Positions 3,542-36,473 of a stretch of DNA of 64,000 nucleotides are shown piece by piece. The DNA comes from Escherichia phage vB_EcoM_E9.1. The number at the start of each line of letters is the position of its first letter. The stretch's first letter is position 1. A program made the position numbers and the translations under genes. The stretch is from sequence record PP886230. The stretch is one strand, 5' to 3'. A model generated the notes under the pieces. The model was not told the DNA's origin. It ran no database searches and was given only the letters and a program-made list of their open reading frames with translations.

Positions 3542-3590
3542 TTAAGGCTGATTCGATGAATCGGCCTTTTTTCTTATATAGGTGAATGCA

Positions 3591-7358: not shown

Positions 7359-7372
7359 TTAGATAAAATTAA

Positions 7373-7400
7373 AGCCACTACAATGTAGTGGCTTTTTTTA
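7373..7400. terminator. bidirectional intrinsic terminator
   Basis: Hairpin AGCCACTA-CAATG-TAGTGGCT followed by T7; sits between convergent genes 6546-7358 (+) and 7401-8555 (-). Confidence 0.7.
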
Positions 7401-14317: not shown

Positions 14318-14325
14318 AGAACAAG

Positions 14326-14350
14326 GGTTGGCTTATGCCAACCTTTTTTT
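14326..14350 (+). terminator. intrinsic terminator
   Basis: Hairpin GGTTGGC-TTAT-GCCAACC followed by T7, directly after the sigma gene stop. Confidence 0.75.
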
Positions 14351-22599: not shown

Positions 22600-22791
22600 A
22601 TGTTGATTTATCAAAGTGATAATATTCGTGTTATGCAGCATCCCTACTTACAAATCTTTGATGTGCAGCAGTATATGGAAGGTGATGACCCAAGAACCTA
22701 TGGTCGTAAGTATGATTACTTCACTGTAAAGCAGTGTAAAAATATTAACGAAGTACGACAATTAGTTCAAGAACTTCAAAACAAAGGTTGA
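22600..22791 (+). CDS. hypothetical protein
   Basis: ORF ~63 aa; ATG 22600 after AAGGA; TGA stop lies inside the TTGACT of the downstream module. Confidence 0.5.
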   Translation: MLIYQSDNIRVMQHPYLQIFDVQQYMEGDDPRTYGRKYDYFTVKQCKNINEVRQLVQELQNKG

Positions 22792-22817
22792 CTTCGGTCA
22801 GCCTTTTTTGTTATAAT
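22785..22817 (+). promoter_or_regulatory. fused terminator-promoter module
   Basis: Hairpin AGGTTGAC-TTCG-GTCAGCCT plus T6; TTGACT in the 5-prime stem arm serves as -35, 18-nt spacer, TATAAT. Confidence 0.65.
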
Positions 22818-22845
22818 TCTCTTAATAAATTAGAGGATTTTAATT

Positions 22846-23286
22846 ATGTATGTATATCGTTTTGAACTTAAATTTAGTTACATTGAACCTAACTTAGATC
22901 CTGCACGAACTGTAGGTCCGTTTGCACGGTATTCAACTAGATACAGTACTAAAAATGGATTTGACCGTTTGCTTATGACTACACCTTCTCAATTCCAACC
23001 TGAACCAACTGAGGATGGGATCTATTCAATCAAAAGTGGATGGGTATTTGGCTGTCAAAGTTTGAAAGATTTGTTCAGATTCTTCACTATGGACTTGGGT
23101 AAATTGCATCGTGCTGGGTTTGCTATATCTGTATATGAAGTTCCAGACCACCATGTAGACATTGGTCGTAATCAGGTTCAGTACTATTGCGGTAGTGCTA
23201 AATTAGTTCGTATCATGTCAGTTAAGGAAGCAAAGGATGAGTTCCGACAAAGTAAAAGAGAAACACATGAGGTAATATATGGATAA
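22846..23286 (+). CDS. hypothetical protein
   Basis: ORF 146 aa. Confidence 0.55.
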   Translation: MYVYRFELKFSYIEPNLDPARTVGPFARYSTRYSTKNGFDRLLMTTPSQFQPEPTEDGIYSIKSGWVFGCQSLKDLFRFFTMDLGKLHRAGFAISVYEVPDHHVDIGRNQVQYYCGSAKLVRIMSVKEAKDEFRQSKRETHEVIYG

Positions 23287-23623
23287 AACTCAAATAGAAT
23301 TAAAGAAATTTGTTTCATTCTATTTTCCTGATGACCCACGTAATTCACAAAAAGATATTGAATATTATAATATCCTATCTAAACAGTTAATGAGAAAGTT
23401 TCAACAGTGTTTAACTATATTCAATACAGATGGAAGACGTAGATACCGAATCGTTTCAATGAATGATGAAAACGCAAATTTCTTTGATTACGATGTAGTT
23501 TTTAGAGCATATAATGATGATCGTATAAAATTAAATTATGATCAAATTATACTTGACCTGAATGTTATATGTGTTATAATCACTCACGTAGCCGAACTTA
23601 ATGGTTTTAAAGAATGGTATTGA
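23279..23623 (+). CDS. hypothetical protein
   Basis: ORF 114 aa. Confidence 0.55.
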   Translation: MDKTQIELKKFVSFYFPDDPRNSQKDIEYYNILSKQLMRKFQQCLTIFNTDGRRRYRIVSMNDENANFFDYDVVFRAYNDDRIKLNYDQIILDLNVICVIITHVAELNGFKEWY

Positions 23624-23637
23624 ATAGAGGATAACAT

Positions 23638-23904
23638 ATGAAGCTTAAATTACAATATAATGGATTTACTTTACGTAATGATACTGAATTTATTAATCGT
23701 TCTCCTGGTGCTGAACTGTTTTTACGAGAGATGAACATTCCTTTCATCATTACTACAGTGGGCGACCGTGAAGTTCTACAATATGCAGAGCATCCGATTA
23801 TTGATGTTCCTTGGTACTCTGAGCATATGTACATGGATATGGCACGTCGCTACAACTGTAAGTTCGTAGTTGAAGGTGATAAAATTACAGTCGAATTTAA
23901 ATAA
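23638..23904 (+). CDS. hypothetical protein
   Basis: ORF 88 aa. Confidence 0.55.
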   Translation: MKLKLQYNGFTLRNDTEFINRSPGAELFLREMNIPFIITTVGDREVLQYAEHPIIDVPWYSEHMYMDMARRYNCKFVVEGDKITVEFK

Positions 23905-23916
23905 GGTAAATTAAAA

Positions 23917-24210
23917 ATGATCAGTACTTCAGTTAATGAAAGCATCGTCGCTGACGTAGAAATGGTTAAAGAATGTGCAGATGAAACTCTTCGTGATATG
24001 TACATTAATGATTTAATTACTGAATACGGTAGTCGTGGTGTACACGAATTTATTCGTTTAAGTGGAGAGTTGATGAAAAATCGAATTCGTATGAAGCTTA
24101 ACGTACATCCAAAAGCATGGGCATTTACATTAAAATACGCAGAAGATATTGTGAATTTGCGTCGAACTGAAGTATATGAACGTTTGCACAATGGTATGTT
24201 AGATAAATGA
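23917..24210 (+). CDS. hypothetical protein
   Basis: ORF 97 aa. Confidence 0.55.
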   Translation: MISTSVNESIVADVEMVKECADETLRDMYINDLITEYGSRGVHEFIRLSGELMKNRIRMKLNVHPKAWAFTLKYAEDIVNLRRTEVYERLHNGMLDK

Positions 24211-24262
24211 TTGTAAAAAAGGAATTCTTAAATGAATTCCTTTTTGTTTATAAGGTATAGTA

Positions 24263-24484
24263 ATGAAATATATAGTACTTGTACTGATATTATTCAGTAC
24301 TGTTGTAAGTGCTAAACAAAAAGAATATGTTAAATGTATAAATTATGAAGAGAAATATGTTGAAACATATAAAAAAAGTATAATTAAAAACGTTTCGATT
24401 ACTAACAGAGCAACAATCATTGTACTTAAAAATGGGTTAATTATGCTATATAAACCACACGTTAAATGTGAAATTATTAATTGA
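24263..24484 (+). CDS. secreted small protein (signal peptide)
   Basis: ORF 73 aa; N-terminus MKYIVLVLILFSTVVSA-KQ. Confidence 0.55.
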   Translation: MKYIVLVLILFSTVVSAKQKEYVKCINYEEKYVETYKKSIIKNVSITNRATIIVLKNGLIMLYKPHVKCEIIN

Positions 24485-24491
24485 GGAAATT

Positions 24492-25064
24492 ATGAATCGT
24501 AAAGGTCGTTTTAAAGTATCAAAAAAGAACAAAAGTTCTAGGTTTAAACCTATTGTTTTAACAGTTAAATCTAACAAAGAATTAACTGCACTTAGTAAAA
24601 AGATAATTTCATCTAAGATTGAAGTATCATACGTAAATTCATTAAAATATATGAATGTCAAACCACTGGACCAACTCATTTCACTTATATTTGAACGTAA
24701 TGATTTTGAGATATCAGTAGATGATTATAGAGCCTATAATGCTGGTTTCATTAATGTTACTTGTAATAAAAAACTAACTGAGTTGGAAAATTTGTCATGT
24801 ATAATAAATCTAGATAAAGGTGTTGTGAAGTACCATTTTGTACATTTCACTAATATCAATAATGGAATGGGTGTACAATCCAGACCTATAGTGCCTACGT
24901 GTGATGTTACTAAATTAGCAAAGCTCAATGATGAAGAATATTTTCAAGAAAGCATTGTAACTGAGCATTTAGATGATATAATAGCTACTTACAAAGAATG
25001 CATATGGGTGTTGAATGCTATAAAACCTAAATTGTGTTTAATGAATATTGTTCGTGATTTATGA
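24492..25064 (+). CDS. hypothetical protein
   Basis: ORF ~190 aa; ATG 24492 after GAGGAA preferred over track start 24468. Confidence 0.55.
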   Translation: MNRKGRFKVSKKNKSSRFKPIVLTVKSNKELTALSKKIISSKIEVSYVNSLKYMNVKPLDQLISLIFERNDFEISVDDYRAYNAGFINVTCNKKLTELENLSCIINLDKGVVKYHFVHFTNINNGMGVQSRPIVPTCDVTKLAKLNDEEYFQESIVTEHLDDIIATYKECIWVLNAIKPKLCLMNIVRDL

Positions 25065-25077
25065 ATGGGGAATCGTA

Positions 25078-25521
25078 ATGAGTTGGGTAAATGTTAATAG
25101 TATTGAACTTAACGAACAAGATATTTTTGCATTTGTAAATTTAACTAATAACACAGTACTAAAAGGGCGTTTGTTCAGTGCTAGTGATGGGTACAAATGG
25201 ATCTCTTTGATGGATGATAGTGGTGTGATTTATAATGTAATGCAATTACCCCAATGGGTATATAGTAACACTGCTGACGATGTTCTTACCGCAGTTATGC
25301 GTGAGTTTGAAAAACTCCCAGGTGGTGATATCAAAAACAAAGTTTTTAATGCAGAACGTAAAAATTATACAGCACAGCAGTTGGAATCCCTTGCCATTGC
25401 TGCTTATCAAGCTGCTATTAAGAAGCCAGAGTGCGTTATTCTTAAGTATGTACCAGACTTAAAACTTACGTTGGAAGACATGGATGCATTCATTTTTACA
25501 TCTGAACTTGATCAGTACTAA
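25078..25521 (+). CDS. hypothetical protein
   Basis: ORF ~147 aa; ATG 25078 preferred over track start 25048. Confidence 0.5.
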   Translation: MSWVNVNSIELNEQDIFAFVNLTNNTVLKGRLFSASDGYKWISLMDDSGVIYNVMQLPQWVYSNTADDVLTAVMREFEKLPGGDIKNKVFNAERKNYTAQQLESLAIAAYQAAIKKPECVILKYVPDLKLTLEDMDAFIFTSELDQY

Positions 25522-25636
25522 TTTAACTTTGGGACAACCATTCTTATTATGATATAATGTTTTATGTCATTCGATATAAATGACAACGGAACTATAAATA
25601 TTATAGTAAAATTTATCTCTTATAGGAGTTATAAAA

Positions 25637-26020
25637 ATGGTTGATAAATGGAATAAGAAAGATCCATCACATGATGTTGATATTTCTGGTCTAGACAATG
25701 CACATAAGCACAAGTATCTAGATTCACTAGGTCTTCTAAAACCAGACCAAAGTCTTGCACATGATCGTCCATCCCGTGAAAAAGCATTTAGCCTAGAATC
25801 ACTAGGTCATGAGCTTAATCGTGTGTTTGAGGATCACCCAATCTATGTACGTGATATTATCGAGAAACTTAAAGTAACTCCTAAAGAGCACTTTAAAGCA
25901 ACTGTACACTCTGCATTCCGTGCATTACATGAATCTCTAAAGAAAACTCACAATCTTCGTAAAATTCATGATGAAATCGTGAATGCAATCGAAAGTGAAA
26001 AACATAAGTTCAAGAAGTAA
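25637..26020 (+). CDS. hypothetical helical protein; domain paralogous to N-terminal part of 26266 ORF
   Basis: ORF 127 aa; LDSLGLLKP..IIEKLKVTPKEHFKATVHSAF resembles VNSLGLLNA..IVKELQSVPKEELKVKAQAVL in the 425-aa ORF. Confidence 0.6.
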   Translation: MVDKWNKKDPSHDVDISGLDNAHKHKYLDSLGLLKPDQSLAHDRPSREKAFSLESLGHELNRVFEDHPIYVRDIIEKLKVTPKEHFKATVHSAFRALHESLKKTHNLRKIHDEIVNAIESEKHKFKK

Positions 26021-26027
26021 TAAAAAG

Positions 26028-26060
26028 GGGTTGACTAAGGTCAGCCCTTTGTTGTATCAT
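26028..26060 (+). promoter_or_regulatory. fused terminator-promoter module (variant)
   Basis: Hairpin GGGTTGAC-TAAG-GTCAGCCC, short T-run, TTGACT -35, 18-nt spacer, TATCAT. Confidence 0.55.
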
Positions 26061-26089
26061 AAATTCTCAATATAACTGAGGTATCATAT

Positions 26090-26203
26090 ATGCAAGGTTT
26101 GAAATTTGTAGTTGCTGCACTCATCGCCGCAGTACTGGTTGGTGGTGTATTCTATGTAGTGGATCAAAAAGTAAATCCACCTGCACAAGAACAATCTAAG
26201 TAA
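26090..26203 (+). CDS. micro membrane protein (37 aa)
   Basis: MQGLKFVVAALIAAVLVGGVFYVVDQKVNPPAQEQSK; single TM helix; sits between two terminator-promoter modules; below the ORF-track length cut-off. Confidence 0.45.
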   Translation: MQGLKFVVAALIAAVLVGGVFYVVDQKVNPPAQEQSK

Positions 26204-26210
26204 CAAAATA

Positions 26211-26242
26211 AGGTTGACTTCGGTCAGCCTTTTCTTTATACT
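26211..26242 (+). promoter_or_regulatory. fused terminator-promoter module
   Basis: Hairpin AGGTTGAC-TTCG-GTCAGCCT plus T-run, TTGACT -35, 17-nt spacer, TATACT. Confidence 0.6.
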
Positions 26243-26265
26243 ATAAATATAGACATAGAGAAAAA

Positions 26266-27543
26266 ATGAAATCTATGGAGAGAAATCAAATGCCAAGTAA
26301 TTTTACTGATAAAAATGGTGGTAACATGGCTGGTCACTCTGATAAATGGAGTGAACGCAACCGCCGTCCAAATAGTTATCAAGCAGGTCAAGGTTCACGT
26401 GGATCACGTAACCAAGGAACTGGTCTAGCTGGTAAAGCAAACGCAGAAGCAGGTGAAGTTAAGAGTACTGAGAACATGACTGAGCTAGAAAAGCTACGTT
26501 ATGTTAATTCATTGGGACTTCTTAATGCTACACAAAAACAACGCCTAGCTGATATGGAACGTGAAGAAAAAGAAAAATCTGCTCCTGCTAAAGAAGAACC
26601 AAAACAAGAAGCACCAAAGGCGGTTAACCCTGTCAAAGAACTGTCGGATAAGTTAGGTAAGATTTTTGCTAATAAACCACAACTTATCCAAGGTATTGTG
26701 AAAGAATTGCAATCTGTACCTAAAGAAGAATTAAAAGTCAAAGCACAAGCTGTGCTTGATGCAATGAGTGGAAATACCAGTACTGAACCAACTGAAGTAT
26801 TCAGTACTATAATGCGTGCACTTGAAGGTACGCAACAAGGTGATGTGCCTGCACAAGAGGAAGTAAGTCTTGAAAGCGTACTTAAAACATTTGATAGTAT
26901 TGGTAAAGAAGACCGTGCTAATGCTCAACAAGTTAAGAATGTACTAGCTAAGTTAGAAAACCGTCTGGAAGGTAAAGACGATAAGATTAAATTAGTATCT
27001 GATGCAGTTAACGATGCACTTAAATCTTATGTACAAGGTGAAAAGAGTCGTTTTGTAACTGCAATGGATGCTGCATTCAATACTATGAAAAAGTATGAAG
27101 CTGATCATGGTGAGAAGGTTACACGAGATGGTTATCTGATGCGTGATGATGAAGAAGGTGCAGTAGAACAGAACGATGTTCATTCAGACGAAGAAATTGA
27201 TGACATGGAAGCTGAACTGTCACAAGACCGCCAAATGACTGAAAAATCCCATAACGAACTACAGAAATTAATGCAATGGGTTGCAGATGTTGGTGAAAAA
27301 GCTGGTGCTGATAAGAAGAGTATAAACCGAAATCTTAGTTGGATTAAAGATAAAGTTGGTAACAACGCTCGTAAACTACAAAAAGCGTGGACTGATGTAG
27401 TGAATGGTGCTGTTGACATTGATGTTGAATCCGGTGAGGCATATGATTATGCATTGACTACACTTGATGACTCTTTCCGTGATTACGAAAATGGAAATGT
27501 AACTCCTTGGGAAAAGGACATCATGAGCAAATACGGTAAATGA
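26266..27543 (+). CDS. large acidic charged protein
   Basis: ORF 425 aa; E/K/D-rich; internal segment paralogous to ORF 25637. Confidence 0.65.
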   Translation: MKSMERNQMPSNFTDKNGGNMAGHSDKWSERNRRPNSYQAGQGSRGSRNQGTGLAGKANAEAGEVKSTENMTELEKLRYVNSLGLLNATQKQRLADMEREEKEKSAPAKEEPKQEAPKAVNPVKELSDKLGKIFANKPQLIQGIVKELQSVPKEELKVKAQAVLDAMSGNTSTEPTEVFSTIMRALEGTQQGDVPAQEEVSLESVLKTFDSIGKEDRANAQQVKNVLAKLENRLEGKDDKIKLVSDAVNDALKSYVQGEKSRFVTAMDAAFNTMKKYEADHGEKVTRDGYLMRDDEEGAVEQNDVHSDEEIDDMEAELSQDRQMTEKSHNELQKLMQWVADVGEKAGADKKSINRNLSWIKDKVGNNARKLQKAWTDVVNGAVDIDVESGEAYDYALTTLDDSFRDYENGNVTPWEKDIMSKYGK

Positions 27544-27552
27544 TAAAACAAA

Positions 27553-27577
27553 AGGTTGACTTCGGTCAGCCTTTTTT
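27553..27577 (+). terminator. intrinsic terminator (GGTTGAC-TTCG-GTCAGCC family)
   Basis: Perfect 7-bp stem, TTCG loop, T7 run; downstream -10 is weak. Confidence 0.7.
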
Positions 27578-27614
27578 TGTAAATACAAAAGAGGAATTAA
27601 GAAGAGGGATTACA

Positions 27615-27866
27615 ATGAAAAAATATATTATATTTGGAATTGTATTATTTTCCAGTACTGCTTATGGTGCAGATTATCATTGCTCCGTAGCAAGGCAGGA
27701 TTTCAGAAATGGGGAGTTCTATACTACCTCATACACAAAAGGAATAATACACGACACCGACAGAACTATTGGATTTAATGCGTTTGACAACAAAGATTCA
27801 TATACTTCAGGTATACTATCTGAGCGTAAGACTGATGTAATGGGAATAGAAAAAGAGTTCCGGTGA
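27615..27866 (+). CDS. secreted small protein (signal peptide)
   Basis: ORF ~83 aa from ATG 27615 (MKKYIIFGIVLFSSTAYG-AD); track start 27540 would read through the terminator hairpin. Confidence 0.6.
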   Translation: MKKYIIFGIVLFSSTAYGADYHCSVARQDFRNGEFYTTSYTKGIIHDTDRTIGFNAFDNKDSYTSGILSERKTDVMGIEKEFR

Positions 27867-27876
27867 TTCAGTAGCA

Positions 27877-28176
27877 ATGTGCAATGGCATTGAAAGTACT
27901 AAAACAATTTATTATAATAATGAACGTAACTATCGTTTTCATAATTTAACCACAAATAAAAGTTTACTATTTTACAATTGTAAAGAAGTAATACTCCCAT
28001 CAGACAATAGCTGTACTCCAACTAATCAACCCCCAGCACAATGTAATACTCCCTCTGAACCTGATAAAAATAAAAAAGACAAAAAACCTTTAAAAGATAA
28101 AAAGAAAGATAAAAAACCTAATCCGTTTAAAAATAATAAACAAGCACAACCCGATATGACGTGTAAAATAAAATAA
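27877..28176 (+). CDS. hypothetical lysine-rich protein
   Basis: ORF 99 aa; C-terminal KNKKDKKPLKDKKKDKKPNPFK low-complexity tail. Confidence 0.5.
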   Translation: MCNGIESTKTIYYNNERNYRFHNLTTNKSLLFYNCKEVILPSDNSCTPTNQPPAQCNTPSEPDKNKKDKKPLKDKKKDKKPNPFKNNKQAQPDMTCKIK

Positions 28177-28185
28177 GGATATATA

Positions 28186-28605
28186 ATGAAAAAGATTTTT
28201 TTAAGTATTATTTTAGTACTTTTTAGTTTTAATGTATATGCAGCAGATGCTAAACAGGTTGCAAATACAGTAAAAGATGTTATAGTAGATAATGCTCCTA
28301 CATTAGAGGAAATTGGGGTAAAAACTTGTGATATAGTAATATATAATTTAGTTAATGATGAACGAGTTATGTTGAATACGTATGAACAAGTAGTCCCATT
28401 GGTTGAATCTGGTGATGCTTTTAGCTTTACATATAAAGTTAAATTAACAGGAGGGGTTGAAGTTAATCTTGACATTGATACCGCTTCAGTACTAAAAGAT
28501 AAACTAGGATATGTGTTCAATCGTATTCGTGAAGAAGGTCATCTTAAGTATGTTTATGAAAGTAAAATACTAAAACGTGCAATAGTTATAGAAAACTGTA
28601 AATGA
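28186..28605 (+). CDS. secreted protein (signal peptide)
   Basis: ORF 139 aa; N-terminus MKKIFLSIILVLFSFNVYA-AD. Confidence 0.6.
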   Translation: MKKIFLSIILVLFSFNVYAADAKQVANTVKDVIVDNAPTLEEIGVKTCDIVIYNLVNDERVMLNTYEQVVPLVESGDAFSFTYKVKLTGGVEVNLDIDTASVLKDKLGYVFNRIREEGHLKYVYESKILKRAIVIENCK

Positions 28606-28614
28606 TAATAAAAG

Positions 28615-28646
28615 GGTTGACTTCGGTCAGCCTTTTTTGTTATGAT
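28615..28646 (+). promoter_or_regulatory. fused terminator-promoter module
   Basis: Hairpin GGTTGAC-TTCG-GTCAGCC plus T6, TTGACT -35, 18-nt spacer, TATGAT. Confidence 0.65.
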
Positions 28647-28674
28647 GTTGGTATTAACTACAGAGGATAAAGTA

Positions 28675-29316
28675 ATGACTAAGCAAGACATATTCAAAAC
28701 TTTAATTGACATTTTGCGTCCATCAAAAACTCGTTGTGCGATGGAGTTTGATATTCCTTATGCTGAACGCGTAATCTTTCCACAAGTTAAAGCTGCTGGA
28801 CTTACTTTGCTTGGAATGGGGATGTACTCTGTAGTAGTTGAACATAAAAACTATCCTGGGCGTGCATTTAAAGTAACCACTTCACGCTGGGATGGTTTTC
28901 GTGCTTATGCAAAGTACTGCATTGAAAACGCAGGAACCAAGTTTCTTCCAGTGATCTACAGTGCAAACGAACAAGGAAACTTTGGATGGTATGAGATGGA
29001 CAAGTACTATCCTATAATTAAACAAAAAAATAATTATGATGACTTTGTTAGTACTAAAATTGGAGATTTATATTCTTATGCACATGCTGGTCAGTACGCT
29101 ACTTCAGTGAATGATATGCGTGGAAATTCTGAAGAGATTGCTATTGCGACGGTCGCTGCTAACATCATGAAAGAGTTTCACGGGCGTTTTGTACCAGACA
29201 TTCATTCCAGTAATGTCATGATGGATAAAGATGGCAATGTATTCATTACTGATCCTCTTTCGTGTGATGTACGTAGAGAAATACCAGTTACTGAAGAAGA
29301 TCCAGTTTTTTATTGA
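28675..29316 (+). CDS. kinase-like protein (weak motif)
   Basis: ORF ~213 aa from ATG 28675 after AGAGGA; DIHSSNVMMDKDGNVFITDPLS resembles the catalytic-loop and metal-binding-loop pattern of APH/choline-kinase-like kinases (HGDLHxxN ... IDFE). Confidence 0.45.
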   Translation: MTKQDIFKTLIDILRPSKTRCAMEFDIPYAERVIFPQVKAAGLTLLGMGMYSVVVEHKNYPGRAFKVTTSRWDGFRAYAKYCIENAGTKFLPVIYSANEQGNFGWYEMDKYYPIIKQKNNYDDFVSTKIGDLYSYAHAGQYATSVNDMRGNSEEIAIATVAANIMKEFHGRFVPDIHSSNVMMDKDGNVFITDPLSCDVRREIPVTEEDPVFY

Positions 29317-29377
29317 CAGAACTGATGTTCTGGTGTATTCTTAATAAACCATAAAAATTGCGGTAAAGGATAAAATC

Positions 29378-29659
29378 ATGCGTTCATTTGAAAACTTAAT
29401 AGGTAAGCATCTTTTATCTGAAATTGATGCAGACGTTAAAGAATTATCCAAATCAAAAAGTTACATTCATTTGGATGAACTGTTTATTAAGTACGGTGAG
29501 ATTGGTTTTAAGTCATTATTTGTTTTTACTATGAAAGTACATAGTTTAAAGTACTTCGATTTGAGTGCTAAAGATGGTGAACCGAATCTATATTACATGT
29601 ATTACCTTAAGAACAAAGATGAAGCTAATACATTACTCTCTGAATATATATTGGGGTAA
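29378..29659 (+). CDS. hypothetical protein
   Basis: ORF 93 aa. Confidence 0.55.
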   Translation: MRSFENLIGKHLLSEIDADVKELSKSKSYIHLDELFIKYGEIGFKSLFVFTMKVHSLKYFDLSAKDGEPNLYYMYYLKNKDEANTLLSEYILG

Positions 29660-29661
29660 AA

Positions 29662-30000
29662 ATGGAACAATATTTTGAATTAATAAACAAAGTATCATTT
29701 TATGTAGTATCTTTGGTTTGGGTGTATTATATGTTTTGCTACATTATTGCATTCTTCCGATACACTACTTTATATGAACGTATCTATTATGATGCCCCAA
29801 TTTCATTCTTGATGTTTTGTGCATGTACGTGGGGAATATTAGAAGTACTGATATGTGGGTATAGTACTGATGAATTAAATCTGGTATCGGTCTTGACTGG
29901 GTTTTCATTTGTTGTTATGATAGCTGCCGTTCCAGTATGGTTGTTCTTTGGACTAGTTCATCGCATTGATATATGGCGTTCTAATATCCCTGAAAAGTAA
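29662..30000 (+). CDS. family-B small multi-pass membrane protein
   Basis: ORF 112 aa; 3-4 hydrophobic helices; basic motif FFRYTTLYERIYYD after helix 1; tail RSNIPEK. Confidence 0.65.
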   Translation: MEQYFELINKVSFYVVSLVWVYYMFCYIIAFFRYTTLYERIYYDAPISFLMFCACTWGILEVLICGYSTDELNLVSVLTGFSFVVMIAAVPVWLFFGLVHRIDIWRSNIPEK

Positions 30001-30009
30001 GGATTGGTA

Positions 30010-30351
30010 ATGATTTATTACACTAACATGTTTGCCTATGCTGTTGCTTGCATTTACATTGTGTACTTCTTATTCGGTGGAGTACTGTGCTTCTTTAAGT
30101 ACAAAACGTTGTTCAACCGAATGTACCCAAATCATCCAATTGTGGTTGTACTTTTGATTCTTTCAGTTTCTCAAATAATAGTTGAAACTACAATGGGTAT
30201 CAGTAGTGTACATTATAGTTTTGGTACTATAGTAATTATTACTATGCTTATTGCATACATTTTAGTACTTGGATATGGTATCTTTGGTAATATTGGTATG
30301 AAAATGTATCATCGAATTAAAACATTACGTGATAATCTACCGGAGCGTTGA
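30010..30351 (+). CDS. family-B small multi-pass membrane protein
   Basis: ORF ~113 aa (ATG 30010; track used TTG 30004); FFKYKTLFNRMYPN; tail RDNLPER. Confidence 0.65.
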   Translation: MIYYTNMFAYAVACIYIVYFLFGGVLCFFKYKTLFNRMYPNHPIVVVLLILSVSQIIVETTMGISSVHYSFGTIVIITMLIAYILVLGYGIFGNIGMKMYHRIKTLRDNLPER

Positions 30352-30352
30352 T

Positions 30353-30697
30353 ATGTATAATTTGAACCTAATCTCATATATTATAACAACACTGTTTACA
30401 TTCTATGCCTTTGTTGGTATAATCCTACTGTACTTTAAATTTTATAAAGTGTTTAACCGTTTCTATCCTTCAATGGAGAATGAGTTTTTCTTTGTGTTGT
30501 ACGTAGGTTACACATTAATGGCTACATGTTTCACTGTAGCCGATGGTGTCATCGGCATTAAAACTGATTCCCCAAATGGTAGTACGCTGGTTGCATTTAT
30601 TCTTACTGGATTCCTTGCAACTTATATTGCCTTCATTACAACATGGTCAGTGGTTGAATTTCTCTTGCGACTACGAAAGAATATGCCGAATCGATAG
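30353..30697 (+). CDS. family-B small multi-pass membrane protein
   Basis: ORF ~114 aa from ATG 30353 (TGATATG junction); YFKFYKVFNRFYPS; tail RKNMPNR. Confidence 0.65.
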   Translation: MYNLNLISYIITTLFTFYAFVGIILLYFKFYKVFNRFYPSMENEFFFVLYVGYTLMATCFTVADGVIGIKTDSPNGSTLVAFILTGFLATYIAFITTWSVVEFLLRLRKNMPNR

Positions 30698-30706
30698 GAG
30701 ACATAT

Positions 30707-30961
30707 ATGTTTGCGTTGCGTAATAAAAACACTAAAGAATTATTATGTATTGATACCGTATGGGATTGTGCGGGGTCAACTACAGTTCTTGAAGAAGGAA
30801 CTGGATATTGCGTGTTTGTTGTACATGATAGGAATGAACTCGAATTATTACTTGCTGAGTTCAATGCTGGTGGTAATCCTAACAGTACTGAATACCCTGA
30901 GATTATCAATCCAGCACCACCAGGCTCTTATGAAATTCTACAACTGTGGGAGTTGAAGTAA
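30707..30961 (+). CDS. hypothetical protein
   Basis: ORF 84 aa. Confidence 0.55.
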   Translation: MFALRNKNTKELLCIDTVWDCAGSTTVLEEGTGYCVFVVHDRNELELLLAEFNAGGNPNSTEYPEIINPAPPGSYEILQLWELK

Positions 30962-31341
30962 TGCGTCAAATGCACAAAGTAACCGAGCTAAACAAGCGTC
31001 TGGTTAAACAATCAATGTTCGAGGATAAAGAGTCTTATTATAACTTTAAACGTGCTGTAGAGGCTGCTATCCACATTCAGAAGCTTAAAGAACGTGGTTG
31101 TATTATTCTGGAAAATGGGTCGGAAGTTGTAACGGATGACTTTAGTGTAGCGTTTGATGTTTCACCTGACGGGACGCTATCAATGCCCCGCTTAGGAACT
31201 GGAAACATGACTGTTTGGGTTGGCTTCACTATGGGGAATGTACCTGGTACTGTGTACGTAGATGATGCGGAATTGAAAGACAGTTTCAAAAACTTATCTT
31301 ATCTTGAACCACAATACGCACATGAAATGAATTTATTTTGA
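30961..31341 (+). CDS. hypothetical protein
   Basis: ORF ~126 aa; TAATG stop-start overlap. Confidence 0.55.
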   Translation: MRQMHKVTELNKRLVKQSMFEDKESYYNFKRAVEAAIHIQKLKERGCIILENGSEVVTDDFSVAFDVSPDGTLSMPRLGTGNMTVWVGFTMGNVPGTVYVDDAELKDSFKNLSYLEPQYAHEMNLF

Positions 31342-31342
31342 G

Positions 31343-31370
31343 TTGACAAACACATTCAGTACTGTATAAT
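31343..31370 (+). promoter_or_regulatory. sigma70-type promoter with ATTCAGTACTG in spacer
   Basis: TTGACA, 16-nt spacer ending in ATTCAGTACTG, TATAAT; leader hairpin GGGATGA..TCATCCC follows. Confidence 0.65.
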
Positions 31371-31417
31371 GCTTATCAAGGGGATGAACTTCTCATCCCT
31401 ACAATCGAGGAACTACC

Positions 31418-31972
31418 ATGATTACTTTTAAGAAAACTGCTAACCACATCCATGAAATCTACATTAACGGTCACAAAGCTGGCCTTCTTCGTTTACTCGC
31501 CCATCATCCTGATGTTACCGTATCTGATAATGAACCTAAAGATTGGCGTGTATTTTTCTTTGGAAAGTACAGTGATTTTCAAGTATCAAACCTGAAGAAC
31601 ATTCGTTCAGTATGCACGTTAACTGAAATTAAAGAAAAGTTAGAAAAAGCATTGAAAACTAATCCAGATGGTGTTCTTCCACCTGATAACTTTGTAGAGA
31701 AAGGTTATGCATTAGCTCATTTCAAAGATGGTACTATTCAATCTATCAGTACTGAATATGAATATCAATGGACTGAGTACTTCACTTATGGATCGCGTAA
31801 TACATTGATGGCTTCACGTAGTAAATTGGAAGAAGTACTGACTCGTATGAATGAACGCGAGCGTCAATTTTATGACAAACCAGAAATGTGGAGTTCAACT
31901 TACATTGACCGTATTGACTATGTTATTATGACTCCAATCTTTGACACTGCTTACTATGATTCTTTGAAATAA
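31418..31972 (+). CDS. hypothetical protein
   Basis: ORF 184 aa. Confidence 0.6.
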   Translation: MITFKKTANHIHEIYINGHKAGLLRLLAHHPDVTVSDNEPKDWRVFFFGKYSDFQVSNLKNIRSVCTLTEIKEKLEKALKTNPDGVLPPDNFVEKGYALAHFKDGTIQSISTEYEYQWTEYFTYGSRNTLMASRSKLEEVLTRMNERERQFYDKPEMWSSTYIDRIDYVIMTPIFDTAYYDSLK

Positions 31973-31983
31973 GGATAACTTAT

Positions 31984-32160
31984 ATGAAACTACGTACTCG
32001 TAATCGACTGATGGATGCACTGTACCATGAACAGCTTTCACTGAATGAAGTGAAGCGTCAGTTAATGTACACATATCTGTTACCCGCTCGCATTGCAAAA
32101 CAACGTGCTAAAGAATTGCTGAAAGAAGCAATCGAGTACTGGGAATCTGATTCGTACTAA
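31984..32160 (+). CDS. hypothetical small protein (58 aa)
   Basis: MKLRTRNRLMDALYHEQLSLNEVKRQLMYTYLLPARIAKQRAKELLKEAIEYWESDSY; fills the gap between flanking genes; below the ORF-track cut-off. Confidence 0.45.
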   Translation: MKLRTRNRLMDALYHEQLSLNEVKRQLMYTYLLPARIAKQRAKELLKEAIEYWESDSY

Positions 32161-32164
32161 TATT

Positions 32165-32536
32165 ATGAATATAGATTTGAAAGGTGCAACACGAACTGTT
32201 ATCCTTATTGGGGATTATGCTATCAAGATTCCAACCTTCAAAAGCTGGAAGTTATTCTTGACAGGAATGATAGCTAACCTCAATGAACGTTCGTGGATGC
32301 AGTACTCCAATCGTAGTGATAGTAGTATCTGTCCTACGTTGTGGTCATCATGTACTGGACTAGTAACTGTACAGAAACGTTGTAAGCCAGTGCAACATAG
32401 GGGTTTATTTTGGGTGGAGTTGTGTGCTTTAGCATTGAATTCAGAGTTAAGTACTGACTTCTTCTATTCAGATGCGAAGCCAGAAAACTTTGGGTATCTG
32501 TGTGGTAAGTTGGTTAAACTTGATTATGGAGATTAA
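32165..32536 (+). CDS. hypothetical protein
   Basis: ORF 123 aa. Confidence 0.55.
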   Translation: MNIDLKGATRTVILIGDYAIKIPTFKSWKLFLTGMIANLNERSWMQYSNRSDSSICPTLWSSCTGLVTVQKRCKPVQHRGLFWVELCALALNSELSTDFFYSDAKPENFGYLCGKLVKLDYGD

Positions 32537-32537
32537 T

Positions 32538-32807
32538 ATGTACGCACTGTATAATAAAGAAAAGAAACGATTTGCTAAGGTTGAAATTTCGATTGATACA
32601 TTTGACATGTTGGAGTACTGTATTGTAACGGACCTATATGCTAACTTGTATTACGTTCTTGATGACGTATCAGTACTGCAACGATTGCTTGAGAATTCCA
32701 AAAGCCAATGCCAGGGCATCTATGATGGTTCATCTTATGAAACACCTGAGTGTTCCTACGGCTATCTGGACGGGTATGAGATTGTGAAGTTGGGGATTGT
32801 TGAATAA
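32538..32807 (+). CDS. hypothetical protein
   Basis: ORF ~89 aa; ATG 32538 one nt after previous stop. Confidence 0.5.
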   Translation: MYALYNKEKKRFAKVEISIDTFDMLEYCIVTDLYANLYYVLDDVSVLQRLLENSKSQCQGIYDGSSYETPECSYGYLDGYEIVKLGIVE

Positions 32808-32900
32808 ATGGATTAAACAATGAAGAAGTGTATGATTCTTTGTTCTAATCACCATCGCATGGTACATTCTGGTAGACTATGTTTGATTGAAAGAAAAAAA

Positions 32901-32933
32901 GGGTTGACTTCAGTCGGCCCTTTTTGCTATAAT
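32901..32933 (+). promoter_or_regulatory. fused terminator-promoter module
   Basis: Hairpin GGGTTGAC-TTCA-GTCGGCCC (two G-U pairs) plus T5, TTGACT -35, 18-nt spacer, TATAAT; conserved leader CATTTCATCGAAACGAGAGG before the ATG. Confidence 0.65.
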
Positions 32934-32961
32934 CATTTCATCGAAACGAGAGGATGAATAC

Positions 32962-33477
32962 ATGACACGCATTAACTTAGTACACGTTAAAGAACTTGCT
33001 GACCAACATCTGATGGCTGAATATCGTGAACTCCCACGTGTATTTGGTGCTGTACAAAAACACGTTCAAGCACGTAAGCGTGTACGTGATTTCAAAATTA
33101 ACAGTACTTATCTGTTAGGTTCAGGTCATGTAACATTTTTCTACGACAAGTTACTGTACTTACAGAAGCGTCATATTGATATTGTCAACGAATGTCTGCG
33201 TCGTGGTATGAAGATTCAAAACACTGAAGTAAACGACATTAGCGGCTTCCCTGCTGAGTTTTGTAATGACTATGTACCATCGGAGTCAGAGATTAAAATG
33301 TCTCGTGATCGTTTGATTGAGAAGCTCCAGATGAAGCCTACGTGGTATAAGTTTACTGATGTTGAATGTCCACAGTACGTTAAAGATATGCAGAACGTAA
33401 GTAGTAAGAACGAATCTAGTACTGATATGTTCGACGAAATTGAAGAACAAATCAAAGATGAAATGAATAATTATTAA
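32962..33477 (+). CDS. denV: pyrimidine-dimer DNA glycosylase / AP lyase (T4 endonuclease V family)
   Basis: ORF 171 aa; N-terminal ~135 aa nearly collinear with T4 endonuclease V as recalled ([50 protein letters not shown]); carries a ~35-aa acidic C-terminal extension. Confidence 0.85.
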
Positions 33478-33515
33478 AGGAAAGGATTGACTTCGGTTAC
33501 ACAAAGGAACATAAC

Positions 33516-33710
33516 ATGTTATTAGTATATTCAAAGCGTTTCTGGATTTCTTTTATTGTACTATCGCTAATCGGCTTCGGTTTGAGTATACTCTTTTCGT
33601 GGGATGAATTGGGTACATGGTATTATGAAGTACCGTGGTACATGAAGATAGCTCCTTGTTATGCGGCATTGTTCGTGTCATTCCTTATTGTTGTCTTCAG
33701 CGAGGATTAG
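33516..33710 (+). CDS. small membrane protein
   Basis: ORF 64 aa; two hydrophobic helices. Confidence 0.5.
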   Translation: MLLVYSKRFWISFIVLSLIGFGLSILFSWDELGTWYYEVPWYMKIAPCYAALFVSFLIVVFSED

Positions 33711-33761
33711 TTGATGTAGTATGTGCTACACCAAAGTATTTGGATATTTGAGATATAAACA

Positions 33762-33790
33762 TTGACACCTGTTCTATCTTTCTGTATTAT
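33762..33790 (+). promoter_or_regulatory. sigma70-type promoter
   Basis: TTGACA, 17-nt spacer, TG-extended TATTAT. Confidence 0.55.
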
Positions 33791-33816
33791 GTACATCACC
33801 AAATGAGGAATACAAC

Positions 33817-34176
33817 ATGGCATCTTTAAGTGAAATCGCGGAATACAACCCACTAACAATCTCAACAATTCAACGTACAAAAACTTTTTATTTCCGTCCT
33901 GCTGATGGATGGAAACGTGGAATGAATGGTGACTATCGAGTACTGGAAGATTCGCTCATCGAGCGTATCAACTCTGAACTACAGAAGTATGAAGGTGTTA
34001 AAGTTGTGCGTTCAACTTCTCGTTATTTTGAGTACTACATTGAGTCTTCAACTGTAAATGAAAACTCATCATTCTCGGTGGACAACACTGATATTCTTCG
34101 TAATGCAGTTGGTCTGTTATGCAACATTGCAGAAGAAATGGGCTTAACTATTACTACTATGAGTGAATTAGAATAA
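33817..34176 (+). CDS. hypothetical protein
   Basis: ORF 119 aa. Confidence 0.6.
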   Translation: MASLSEIAEYNPLTISTIQRTKTFYFRPADGWKRGMNGDYRVLEDSLIERINSELQKYEGVKVVRSTSRYFEYYIESSTVNENSSFSVDNTDILRNAVGLLCNIAEEMGLTITTMSELE

Positions 34177-34182
34177 CATAAA

Positions 34183-34215
34183 GGGTTGACTTCGGTCAGC
34201 CCTTTTTGCTATAAT
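34183..34215 (+). promoter_or_regulatory. fused terminator-promoter module
   Basis: Hairpin GGGTTGAC-TTCG-GTCAGCCC plus T5, TTGACT -35, 18-nt spacer, TATAAT; same conserved leader ATCGAAACGAGAGG as at 32940. Confidence 0.7.
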
Positions 34216-34241
34216 TATTTTATCGAAACGAGAGGTAATAC

Positions 34242-34481
34242 ATGAAACTATCTTTTATACGTTTAGCAGAATTCTTCGGTACTGATATTATTACTTTACA
34301 ACAAATTGCAGACAATACTTCATTAAGTACACAAGAAGTACTTGACTTAGATGTAATTCAGTGCGATAATACTTCCATTGATTTCAAAGAAGGTCTTGTC
34401 GAAAAAGATAAGATTCAAGCTAAGATTAATGGTGCTGGACGGGTTCAGTACTGGAAAGGAGTTTTAAGTAATGCCAGCTAA
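34242..34481 (+). CDS. hypothetical protein
   Basis: ORF 79 aa. Confidence 0.55.
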   Translation: MKLSFIRLAEFFGTDIITLQQIADNTSLSTQEVLDLDVIQCDNTSIDFKEGLVEKDKIQAKINGAGRVQYWKGVLSNAS

Positions 34482-35820
34482 ATTAACCCCTAAACAAGCA
34501 AAAGAAAAATTCAACAATAAAGTATTAGAACATAACGTTCCAATTGAAGCTGATTATAGTAAGTATGAAAATGCCAAATTAAAAAACATCCAAGTAGTTT
34601 GCAATGATGTATTAAAACACAAATCAGGCATATCACAAGTATATCTTATGGATCACGCAAACCTCACACACCCATCTAAAAAATTTGGTTGTCCTGAATG
34701 TGAAGACTGGTATAATGGTCATGCTAAAAGTTTAGATATTTTAATTGTTAGGGAAAGAATTAATTCTTGGATTAGTACTTATGGTGGCATAATTGATACA
34801 GTTAGTGGTGAAGTTGAAGTTTATAAAAATAATTCAACAAAAATACCATATATTTGTAAAAATGGAACTAAAAAAACGCTTACTATTTCTACACTGGGTG
34901 ATGAAATCGGTTGTAATTGTTCTAAATGTAAATCTGAATTAATATCAGAAATCGAAGATAACAATGAATATACATCCATGACTACTGATGATGATTGTGT
35001 TACAATTTCCCATTTTATATTTGGGGATGATGTTGCATTCTCGTGGATTTCACCATTGGAAATGAAAAAACATGGTTACGGTCTTGCCGAAAAAATGAAA
35101 GAAAAAGCATTGTCGGTTGGTAAAAATATTATTGGATATGCAATATCATCTCTTAGTGAATGGAAAAATGAAAAAACTCCTGTAATAACGGAACACGAAG
35201 GAGTATTATATCGTATTTCCAGAGCATCATATTTGATCAATAATAATATAGTACATAGACCACATTATACAAAAAATAATTTTTTATATTATTTTTACAA
35301 ATGTTCACCTAACAATCAACTTATTACACCAATCCTAATACCTGATGATGTTGGTACAAAAAAGAAAATTAAAGTATGTTATAAATCATGTGGGTGTGAA
35401 TACGATATATCTGTGGACGTTATAATGAACAGAAATTTAAAAACTTGTGGAAACTGTAAAAATATAGATACTAAAACATTTATAGAAAAGTGCTTGGAGT
35501 TCAAATCAAGTGGAGAATATATCTATAATAGAGTAAACTATATAAATCAAAGTACACCTGTAACTATAGTTCATAAAATTTACGGAGAATTCAAAAGTAC
35601 ACCACAAAATCACTTAACACATTTAAAAAACAGTTTGAAATATGATACAGCTAACTTTAAAATAAAAAATCTAACTCAATTTAAAATTAAAGCAAATGAA
35701 GTTCATAATAACTTATATAATTATGATAAAGTTGATTATGTAAATTCTTCAACGAATTTAAAATTAAAGCAAATGAAGTTCATAATAACTTATATAATTA
35801 TGATAAAGTTGATTATGTAA
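34471..35820 (+). CDS. cysteine-rich repeat protein, C-terminus disrupted by a 77-bp tandem duplication
   Basis: ORF 449 aa with CxxC pairs (CPECEDW, CNCSKCK, CGNCKN) and repeated ~40-aa units (Y..V.Y.N..T...I.H..YG.F...P..HL); the last 21 codons are read out of frame through the second DNA repeat copy. Confidence 0.5.
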   Translation: MPAKLTPKQAKEKFNNKVLEHNVPIEADYSKYENAKLKNIQVVCNDVLKHKSGISQVYLMDHANLTHPSKKFGCPECEDWYNGHAKSLDILIVRERINSWISTYGGIIDTVSGEVEVYKNNSTKIPYICKNGTKKTLTISTLGDEIGCNCSKCKSELISEIEDNNEYTSMTTDDDCVTISHFIFGDDVAFSWISPLEMKKHGYGLAEKMKEKALSVGKNIIGYAISSLSEWKNEKTPVITEHEGVLYRISRASYLINNNIVHRPHYTKNNFLYYFYKCSPNNQLITPILIPDDVGTKKKIKVCYKSCGCEYDISVDVIMNRNLKTCGNCKNIDTKTFIEKCLEFKSSGEYIYNRVNYINQSTPVTIVHKIYGEFKSTPQNHLTHLKNSLKYDTANFKIKNLTQFKIKANEVHNNLYNYDKVDYVNSSTNLKLKQMKFIITYIIMIKLIM

Positions 35821-36068
35821 ATTCTTCAACGAAAGTATTAATAACTCATCCAGTGTATGGAGACTTTTGGCAAACTCCAAATGGGCATTTGGCAGGTAAA
35901 GGACACCCGAAAGTCAAAGGTGGTGTTCCTTATACATGTGATGAATTTAAAATTAAAGCAAATGAAGTTCATAATAACTTATATAATTATGATAAAGTTG
36001 ATTATGTAAATTCTTCAACGAAAGTATTAATAACTCATCCAGTGTATGGAGACTTTTGGCAAACTCCA
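35680..36068 (+). repeat. tandem DNA duplication inside the repeat-protein locus
   Basis: 77-bp unit TTTAAAATTAAAGCAAATGAAGTTCATAATAACTTATATAATTATGATAAAGTTGATTATGTAAATTCTTCAACGAA at 35680-35756, repeated and extended at 35757-35879 and again at 35946-36068; copies identical by eye. Confidence 0.8.
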
Positions 36069-36434
36069 GCAAGTCACCTTTGTGGGTCTGGTCATCCACT
36101 TGCGGCTGGTCATTCTCAGCAATATGCATATATTCATAATATTTTGGATGGTGATTTATCTGTAGCATTGAAATATGGTATTGAAAAGCAGAAAGGTAAG
36201 AGGGTTATGCAGCAAAATAAAAAATCATTATTTAAAATTGAATCGTTACATACGTATTTTTTCACATCTGTGTTTGAGTGTAAGGAAGCTGAAAAAGAAT
36301 GTAAAAAACTATTTGGTAAAGGCGTTTTAACTAAACAAGAAATGCCAGATGGTTATACTGAAACTACTACACCAAACAACATAGATAAAATTATTGCAAT
36401 CTATGAAAAATGGGGTGGGGTGAAAAAAAACTAA
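35853..36434 (+). CDS. repeat protein (continuation or second copy of the 34471 locus)
   Basis: ORF 193 aa containing two copies of FKIKANEVHNNLYNYDKVDYVNSSTKVLITHPVYGDFWQTP.HL.G.GHP. Confidence 0.5.
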   Translation: MYGDFWQTPNGHLAGKGHPKVKGGVPYTCDEFKIKANEVHNNLYNYDKVDYVNSSTKVLITHPVYGDFWQTPASHLCGSGHPLAAGHSQQYAYIHNILDGDLSVALKYGIEKQKGKRVMQQNKKSLFKIESLHTYFFTSVFECKEAEKECKKLFGKGVLTKQEMPDGYTETTTPNNIDKIIAIYEKWGGVKKN

Positions 36435-36440
36435 ACAAAA

Positions 36441-36473
36441 GGGTTGACTTCGGTCAGCCCTTTTTGCTATAAT
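36441..36473 (+). promoter_or_regulatory. fused terminator-promoter module
   Basis: Hairpin GGGTTGAC-TTCG-GTCAGCCC plus T5, TTGACT -35, 18-nt spacer, TATAAT. Confidence 0.7.

Follow-up and report, generated by a model that had tools for sequence, protein, structure and literature searches.

Can one short intergenic repeat both close a transcript and open the next? The question is raised by a family of hairpins at the gene junctions of Escherichia phage vB_EcoM_E9.1, in a stretch of 64,000 nucleotides (sequence record PP886230; the window below, numbered from its first letter), where an earlier note had read each hairpin as a terminator whose 5' arm is also the -35 hexamer of a promoter. We consider it highly likely that each of these units (modules) is a composite regulatory cassette of the PeSL (promoter-early stem-loop) type, the combination of a strong sigma-70 promoter and a stem-loop known from T4-like phages, within an early region transcribed by the host RNA polymerase. 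This reading is carried by the repeat family itself, by selection on hairpin pairing, by a sigma-70-like conservation profile and by recombination footprints among relatives, all of which we observe here; that the units both terminate and initiate transcription in vivo, and how efficiently, we infer from the sequence.

The window comes from a jumbo coliphage of the genus Asteriusvirus (121Q/PBECO4/slurp01 group). Identity of the region to the ~350-kb coliphages slurp01, phAPEC6, JP4, SP27, 121Q and PBECO4 is 97-99%, and relatives cover just 62-97% of it. Every gene from 1 to ~40 kb lies on the + strand, with a GC-skew switch near 40 kb, and the same strand alone carries seven promoters with a perfect 12/12 match to the sigma-70 consensus (TTGACA-16/17-TATAAT; 1678, 8549, 10395, 11757, 16700, 21014 and 31343), none of them fused to a module hairpin. 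The genes include a T7 gp0.7-like protein kinase, denV, homing-type endonucleases and numerous small open reading frames (ORFs) with no known function. The + strand genes, the seven consensus promoters and the presence of the kinase and denV indicate that this is an early region transcribed by the host RNA polymerase.

To define the family, we searched the window with the 18-mer GGTTGACTTCGGTCAGCC, allowing up to three mismatches. The search returned eight matches, all on the + strand, at 22786, 26029, 26212, 27554, 28615, 32902, 34184 and 36442 (positions that name the copies below). Six are exact, copies 26029 and 32902 have two mismatches each, and no match was found in 100 shuffled sequences, in line with a chance expectation of zero. 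All eight are co-oriented with the genes and lie in gene junctions between 22.8 and 36.5 kb. Thus the eight shared sites with hairpin and T-run of the earlier note are upheld. Its description of them as dispersed is not: the eight copies fall within 14 kb and the remaining 50 kb of the window has none. A genome-wide copy search, which the note had suggested, was run on the complete relative EC22.5-2 (351,992 bp) and did find strong copies, all of them in a single ~14-kb cluster corresponding to that of the window. An nhmmer search of the 64-kb window with a core profile found no additional strong copy, just a half copy at 33481 and a terminator at 14323, which was rejected as a further copy on account of its unrelated sequence (GGGTTGGC-TTAT-GCCAACC-T7). 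The units are near-identical, span ~35-70 bp, and share the core AAAGGGTTGAC-TTCG-GTCAGCCCTTTTTG(C/T)TATAAT in an alignment of their flanks. They occupy intergenic gaps of 54-71 nt (154 nt at 32902), with the upstream stop codon 7-10 nt 5' of the hairpin or within it in seven of the eight, and the predicted transcription start (+1) lies 17-25 nt upstream of an ATG that is preceded by a Shine-Dalgarno (SD) sequence.

The hairpin has the canonical anatomy of an intrinsic terminator. Downstream of a gene, a G+C-rich stem of 9-13 bp (including an A/U extension) closes a UUCG loop and is followed directly by a U-run in every window copy, weakly so in 26212 (UUUUCUUU). The + strand RNAs fold at -12.4 to -18.3 kcal/mol with z scores of -4 to -6; the reverse-strand fold is weaker by 3-5 kcal/mol because a conserved G·U pair becomes C·A. 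Independent terminator calls, from ARNold and another pipeline, were made in G17 (ARNold), in UE-S1 and in the supplement on phage CBB, none of which lists the hairpins as promoters. We then built an alignment of 28 distinct copies, drawn from the window, from ten Asteriusvirus relatives and from other phages. Pairing is satisfied in 98.4% of the cells, compared to 19.8-63% after a shift of the 3' partner by 1-3 columns, and in three pairs both partners have changed (12 cells). The 5' arm TTGAC(T) is invariant, and the 3' arm varies by A/G toggling at wobble positions only (GTCAGCC, GTCAACC, GTCGGCC), with a G·U pair at one stem position in 25 of the 28 copies. Other phage contigs carry an inverted clamp, GCCC..GGGC. 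The level of pairing, the both-sided changes, the invariant 5' arm and the toggling in the 3' arm together indicate that pairing is under selection, and that the constraint is asymmetric: the 5' arm appears to serve as a -35 element as well, and the pairing works only in + strand RNA. The wobble G may avoid a mirror-image TTGAC on the opposite strand and weaken the antisense hairpin, an idea in which our confidence is low because a few natural copies have A at this position.

The promoter half of the unit was assessed in the same copies. The -35 hexamer is TTGACT in all eight, and the spacers measure 18 nt apart from one of 17 nt (26212), so this part of the earlier description holds throughout; the TATAAT that it gave for every site is found in four copies (22786, 32902, 34184 and 36442), with TATCAT, TATACT or TATGAT in three and no -10 in 27554. 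In seven of the eight copies the -10 scores 5-6 out of 6, and five have the TG of an extended -10. In the 28-copy alignment, T-12 and A-11 never vary, conservation of T-10 and T-7 is 90% or more and the two central positions are unconstrained; this is the conservation profile of sigma-70 -10 elements. Divergent orthologues in UE-S1, Ec-M-J and Turkey3 retain the -10 next to a wholly different leader. An A-tract and GGG lie 5' of the -35 (AAAAAAGGG); the proximal subsite of the UP element is reportedly AAAAAARNR, which we presume the A-tract and GGG to resemble. Hairpin anatomy and sigma-70-like conservation thus lend in silico support to the proposal of a compact, fused terminator-promoter.

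The best-surviving alternative is that the modules are ordinary intrinsic terminators and nothing else, with TTGACT and TATAAT as non-functional by-products of the hairpin sequence and the AT-rich genome. Terminators are all that has been annotated to date, copy 27554 keeps its hairpin perfectly without a -10, and a generic promoter scan of this AT-rich region returns about as many sites from the real sequence as from shuffled sequence (110 vs 92.6). A by-product, however, would not explain why TTGACT stays constant in 28 distinct copies while the opposing arm varies, why the -10 shows sigma-70-like conservation at a fixed 17-18 nt together with TG, or why it is kept in orthologues whose leaders have been replaced. 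The identical geometry of hairpin and -10 also recurs in unrelated phages with many different loops, and several gene groups would sit promoterless behind a strong terminator. We therefore regard this alternative as quite unlikely.

Conversely, the promoter could be real and the hairpin non-terminating, acting as a 3'-end stabilizer, a processing site, a DNA cruciform or a protein-binding site for recombination. Two half modules, at 33481 in the window and at ~15530 in JP4, end right at the loop, one PeSL crossover in RB49 was mapped to the loop (PMC2839356), and some U-runs are short. Yet the G·U pairs would be mismatches in a DNA cruciform or in the other strand, the loops are biased toward the UNCG and GNRA tetraloops typical of terminators, and each window copy has its U-run 3' of the stem; homology suffices for most crossovers, and the resulting chimeras have intact cores. 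A non-terminating hairpin is thus very unlikely.

To follow the modules across genomes, we aligned positions 18-41 kb of the window with ten relatives and located the modules in each. In three clean cases, two window modules correspond to one in a relative (intervals of 0.1-2.3 kb). Modules 34184 and 36442 are replaced by a single module in SP27 and UE-S1, with the intervening 2.26 kb missing; in UE-S1, 26029 and 26212 likewise become one with loss of a 114-bp ORF, and 27554 and 28615 become one with loss of three genes (~1.06 kb). Each time, the chimeric module has an intact core, flanked on the left as in the first window copy and on the right as in the second. Insertions and exchanges were observed as well. 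Ec-M-J and Turkey3 carry 730 bp of different genes between 26029 and 26212, and JP4 carries an extra 612-bp gene inserted at the loop of 34184, where a degraded left half copy remains (the one at ~15530). At 36442, replaced endonuclease cassettes are found in 121Q, JP4, PBECO4, Ec-M-J and Turkey3, with homology resuming exactly at the 5' edge (36414-36437). A 78-bp indel adjoins the 5' edge of 32902 in comparisons with G17, SP27, 121Q, PBECO4 and UE-S1. Of 27 breakpoint clusters, eight have a hairpin centre no more than 40 nt away, compared to 0.9 expected (P=2e-6, uniform null). When the null is a choice among the 34 gene junctions, breakpoints hit seven of the eight module junctions vs six of the other 26 (P=0.002). 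These module-bounded exchanges bear out the portability that the earlier note had suggested, to the extent that comparative genomics of relatives can indicate it.

Homology alone accounts for the chimeric copies. A site-specific recombination site or a transposable repeat, such as a miniature inverted-repeat transposable element or a repetitive extragenic palindrome, was rejected: all copies have a single orientation, that of the genes, none shows a flanking duplication, and no integrase or transposase is present among the flanking genes scanned. That free-standing homing endonuclease genes or general illegitimate recombination at junctions drive the rearrangements, with the modules as bystanders, is extremely unlikely, even though HNH or other endonuclease genes lie in or beside the most variable cassettes (34471-36434 in the window; an HNH insertion at 32826-32833 in JP4 and Ec-M-J; different endonucleases in 121Q, PBECO4 and JP4) and junctions without a module are broken too, because the events at 26029/26212 and 27554/28615 involve no endonuclease gene and each end in one chimeric module whose left flank comes from one copy and whose right flank comes from its partner, and the enrichment survives the junction-only null.

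We propose the following working scheme for the composite cassette. In + strand RNA, AAAGGGUUGAC-UUCG-GUCAGCCCUUUUU would act as an intrinsic terminator that closes the upstream unit, and in DNA its 5' arm would supply the -35 hexamer TTGACT. The loop, 3' arm and T-run would make up the 17-18-bp promoter spacer, followed directly by TGnTATAAT, such that the upstream transcript would end in a U-run that doubles as spacer and as the beginning of the -10. Initiation by the host holoenzyme would take place ~7 nt past the -10, and transcription would restart ~45 nt after the beginning of the hairpin on a 17-25-nt leader with an SD sequence. Since terminator and restart promoter are fused in one unit, each gene or small gene group would be insulated within a 54-71-nt gap. 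Homologous recombination between units, being near-identical direct repeats, would delete, insert or swap the intervening genes, and a recombined gene would retain its own start and stop signals.

Several points weigh against this scheme. Copy 27554 has no credible -10 (TGTAAATAC), and the 18-bp spacer is suboptimal. The U-runs measure 3-7 nt and that of 26029 is interrupted (CUUUGUUG), for which reasons termination may be partial. From polymerase footprint sizes, the two functions could not act simultaneously on one template, since a polymerase bound at the promoter would stop an elongation complex arriving from upstream short of the hairpin. Of 26 breakpoints, ten fall inside genes, and six of those in junctions lie away from modules; the most variable cassette houses homing endonuclease genes, which could by themselves drive part of the exchange and probably contribute to it in the 32.8-36.4-kb stretch. 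Finally, a literature search found no transcript 5'- or 3'-end data for this phage or any Asteriusvirus.

Composite units of this kind have been described before. The PeSLs of RB49 and phi1 (Arbiol et al. 2010, PMC2839356) join a strong sigma-70 promoter to a stem-loop, are concentrated in hyperplastic regions and fall into five positional subclasses, in one of which the stem-loop overlaps the -35; lacZ fusions showed both promoter and terminator activity, and recombination between neighbouring PeSLs was shown through mini-circles and chimeric PeSLs. Comeau et al. 2014 (PMC4122927) extended PeSLs to PST/T4 and nt-1/KVP40, reported A3-4G3-loop-C3T3-4 as the stem consensus of nt-1/KVP40, and noted 'degraded' half PeSLs close to indels. 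Among the searchable papers, these two were the only ones found to use the term in its phage sense. KVP40 carries AAAGGGTTGACTACGGTCAGCCCTTTCTTGTATTAT, which is near-verbatim the same architecture, and a 71-nt module query matched 172 phage records. The KVP40 match, together with PeSL-like anatomy and behaviour, indicates that the window units are of the same kind, a concept thus already described; judged from the consensus in the text of that paper and the KVP40 sequence, they are probably the very type reported for KVP40/nt-1.

The resemblance extends to many details. In both cases, an early sigma-70-like promoter and a terminator stem-loop are combined in a short intergenic gap, with the upstream stop codon in an A/T-rich stretch and an SD sequence and ATG at the 3' end. 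The units recur within a hyperplastic early region, where they are concentrated among small variable genes, and both systems have -35-overlapping stem-loops, G-T stem pairs, 'degraded' half copies, and genes that lie between two copies in one phage and are replaced by a single chimeric copy in a close relative. There are also differences. The carrier here, an Asteriusvirus jumbo phage (~350 kb), does not belong to the Straboviridae, from which PeSLs were described. A single, very uniform subclass dominates (5' arm as -35, 18-nt spacer with TG, UUCG loop), whereas RB49/phi1 has five, and the 8-9 copies per genome form one cluster. Promoter and terminator activity were demonstrated with lacZ fusions for RB49/phi1, whereas the present units are known from sequence only; similarly, mini-circles were shown there, whereas here recombination is seen solely through its outcome, deletions and insertions in relatives.

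Compared to the intrinsic terminators of E. coli and its phages, the modules share a G+C-rich 8-13-bp stem, a stable tetraloop, a 3' U-run and a position just after a stop codon, and copies in relatives are ARNold-positive. They differ in that the 5' arm is held invariantly to TTGAC, the U-run runs straight into the -10 and an upstream A-tract renders the module nearly symmetric. The T7 A1 promoter also has a TTGACT -35, and its transcript starts ATCGAGAGGG, compared to a predicted start of ATCGAAACGAGAGG for the module; T7 A3 starts ATGAAACGA, and both T7 starts have short pieces in common with the module leader. Neither T7 promoter has a terminator hairpin built into its -35 and spacer, and the resemblance of the initial transcribed sequences is short and may be due to chance.

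These comparisons extend the PeSL idea from T4-like phages to jumbo phages of the Rak2/121Q type, as regulatory punctuation that doubles as a recombination substrate for the shuffling of accessory genes. Early promoters inside such hairpins would currently be missed in jumbo-phage annotation because the hairpins are annotated as terminators only; likewise, we found no description of the modules as promoters in papers on 121Q-like phages. For engineering, the modules would provide natural crossover points at which gene cassettes could be assembled or removed in these phages, and synthetic biology would gain a compact stop/start part of 45 bp. That the design, leader included, recurs almost verbatim in different phage families raises the question of convergence or cassette transfer, and this conservation of the entire cassette between families most deserves further work.

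We therefore examined the distribution of the unit and its leader. The strict pattern with TATAAT was found in IMG/VR only in jumbo contigs of 345-378 kb, and among 185,579 cellular species genomes only in two Faecalimonas contigs from metagenome-assembled genomes (MAGs), possibly phage-derived contigs binned into these MAGs; this near-absence led us to reject a host motif. A looser composite that includes the predicted +1 leader ATCGAAACGA was found in KVP40, VH7D, Certrevirus-sized contigs, 108-174-kb contigs and other jumbo contigs, with many different loops, mainly UNCG or GNRA. In the window, ATCGAAACGA is present at 32940-32949 and 34222-34231. The earlier note had assigned one leader to three copies; copy 32902 has it exactly (CATTTCATCGAAACGAGAGG) and 34184 with two differences, but 36442 differs at seven positions and has in common only ATTTCATC and GAGG. 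'GAAAC' at about +4 to +8 is kept even where the leader otherwise differs. A role of GAAACG in the leader as a middle-mode operator is unsupported (GAAACGA is not enriched, 8 vs 5.4, and the window has no TGAAACG-N12-18-TATAAT), TGAAACG having been reported as a '-35' motif for CBB/GAP32. A leader 5' stem-loop was also dropped, as the stems seen by eye have only 3-5 bp and differ among leader variants.

The geometry of hairpin and promoter can explain convergence of the core, not the shared 10-13-nt leader, which leaves either movement of the cassette or a functional initial transcribed sequence. Co-transfer with a gene was rejected, as the genes downstream of the KVP40, DU_PP_I, SalinJah, BF and XbC2 copies have no homology to the window or the relative genome. 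A tentative and rather unlikely proposal is that a ~55-60-nt unit, made up of the A-tract/GGG clamp, TTGAC 5' arm, tetraloop, GTCAG/CCC 3' arm, T-run, TGnTATNAT and the +1 leader ATCGAAACGA, is a horizontally mobile cassette of unrelated large virulent phages, with an initial transcribed sequence of undescribed function. Its range may take in Rak2-like jumbo phages, KVP40-like Schizotequatrovirus, Certrevirus and the uncultured 108-174-kb contigs, and the conserved leader may act in promoter escape, in 5'-end protection or as a regulator site. By analogy with RNA polymerase recycling (PMC6978380), a release point inside the next promoter might allow the terminating polymerase to re-initiate locally while still on the DNA.

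A diverged subfamily lies beyond the 3' end of the window in the complete relative, with four copies ~3 kb apart that have the form GGGATTGAC-TCCG-GTCAGTCCC and a short T-run. In OR845138.1, diverged hairpin-promoters AAAGGGATTGAC-TCCG-GTCAGTCCCTTTGCTATTAT with a compensated extra base pair and a 3-T run are found at 40051, 43525, 46792 and 49544, ~3 kb apart and just past the window's 3' end, and related contigs carry units similar to the diverged subfamily followed by a conserved CTAACCCACAGGGTG element.

Late-type signals in the window are relevant to insulation. The T4 late-promoter motif TATAAATA is strongly depleted, with two occurrences in 64 kb vs 14.2±3.6 in shuffles. Both occurrences (25593-25600 and 26242-26249, + strand) lie 24-44 nt upstream of ORFs assigned to 'virion structural protein' PHROGs (25637-26020 and 26266-27543), which suggests that, outside the places where it is used, the motif is avoided, and that the early region harbours embedded late-type genes. 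The two virion-protein genes are bracketed by modules 26029 and 26212 and the terminator-only 27554. Thus, modules may separate units of different temporal class, which supports an insulator role.

The individual modules, all on the + strand, illustrate these features. The first (22783-22817) has a 10-bp stem at 22783-22806 with a TTCG loop and a T-run (-14.1 kcal/mol), -35 TTGACT at 22788-22793, an 18-nt spacer, TG and -10 TATAAT at 22812-22817, a predicted +1 at 22824 and an ATG at 22846. The stop codon TGA of its upstream ORF (22789-22791) falls within the -35, as the earlier note had stated; the record of G17, where this ARNold terminator is annotated, has the identical overlap of stop and hairpin. 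The module at 26025-26060 has an 11-bp stem (26025-26050), a TAAG loop and a short interrupted T-run (CTTTGTTG; -17.6 kcal/mol), followed from -35 TTGACT (26031-26036) over 18 nt by TATCAT (26055-26060) and then by a 37-codon ORF (26090-26203); breakpoints of UE-S1, Ec-M-J and Turkey3 lie at 26057-26070. The next (26210-26249) has a 9-bp stem at 26210-26231 (-12.4 kcal/mol), TTGACT at 26214-26219, a 17-nt spacer and a weak -10, TATACT (26237-26242), that overlaps the T4-late-type TATAAATA upstream of the virion-protein gene (26266/26290-27543); its breakpoints lie at 26198-26205. The terminator-only module (27550-27583) combines an 11-bp stem at 27550-27575 and a T7 run (-14.3 kcal/mol) with a retained TTGACT, a downstream ATG at 27615 and a UE-S1 breakpoint at 27577. 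The fifth module (28610-28646; 12-bp stem at 28610-28637, T6 run, -14.8 kcal/mol) precedes the T7 gp0.7-like kinase gene (ATG 28675), with its -35 at 28617-28622, an 18-nt spacer and TG with TATGAT at 28641-28646; UE-S1 has a breakpoint at 28598.

Three further modules have the full TATAAT. That at 32896-32949 precedes denV (ATG 32962) and has a 13-bp stem (32896-32925), a TTCA loop and a GTCGGCC 3' arm that gives two G·U pairs (-17.3 kcal/mol); -35 (32904-32909) and TG plus TATAAT (32928-32933) are separated by 18 nt, the predicted +1 is at 32940 on leader ATCGAAACGA, and the 78-bp indel adjoins its 5' edge at 32886. Module 34180-34231 (11-bp stem at 34180-34205, -18.3 kcal/mol; -35 34186-34191, spacer 18, TG and TATAAT 34210-34215, predicted +1 34222 with leader ATCGAAACGA, ATG 34242) is a crossover site in SP27, UE-S1, JP4, Ec-M-J and Turkey3. 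Module 36437-36473 (12-bp stem at 36437-36464, -17.6 kcal/mol; -35 36444-36449, spacer 18, TG and TATAAT 36468-36473, predicted +1 36480 with leader ATCAACTGATGAGG, ATG 36502) marks the homology boundary at 36414-36437 in seven relatives. The degraded half module GGATTGACTTCGGTTAC (33481-33497, +) consists of the 5' arm and loop, without 3' arm, T-run or -10, and lies within a 392-bp segment (33365-33757) that is missing from slurp01, phAPEC6 and PBECO4. Between the last two modules, the variable cassette 34232-36436 (+) carries a 79-codon ORF and a split homing-type endonuclease gene. It is missing in SP27 and UE-S1, with one chimeric module in its place, and is swapped for other endonuclease genes in 121Q, JP4, PBECO4, Ec-M-J and Turkey3.

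The split in that endonuclease gene coincides with an exact 77-bp tandem duplication (35678-35833; 2.0 copies, 100% identical), which divides the 1887-bp gene of slurp01 and phAPEC6 into ORFs 34471-35820 and 35853-36434 and arose either recently, as a frameshifting event, or as an artefact of assembly. Existing annotations conflict with two modules. A 327-bp coding sequence (CDS) of phAPEC6, JP4 and SP27 (27540-27866) starts at an ATG and reads through module 27554, and the kinase CDS of 121Q and PBECO4 (28642-29316) starts at an ATG inside the module -10 (TATGAT); shorter versions starting at 27615 and 28675 have proper SD sequences. The virion-protein gene of 425 codons has an in-frame ~290-bp indel at 27178-27233, and is longer (1488-1530 vs 1254 bp) in G17, slurp01, 121Q, PBECO4, Ec-M-J and Turkey3. 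Rfam gave no family at the modules, its sole matches in the window being three tRNA genes at the start (174-2071; Met-CAT, Asn-GTT and Thr-TGT). Separate terminators lie at 3544-3568, 7371-7395 and 14323-14346. From 37338-37676 onward, an array of paralogous ~340-bp genes varies in copy number among relatives, with breakpoints at 37338 and 37466 (JP4, SP27 and UE-S1) that are unlinked to modules.

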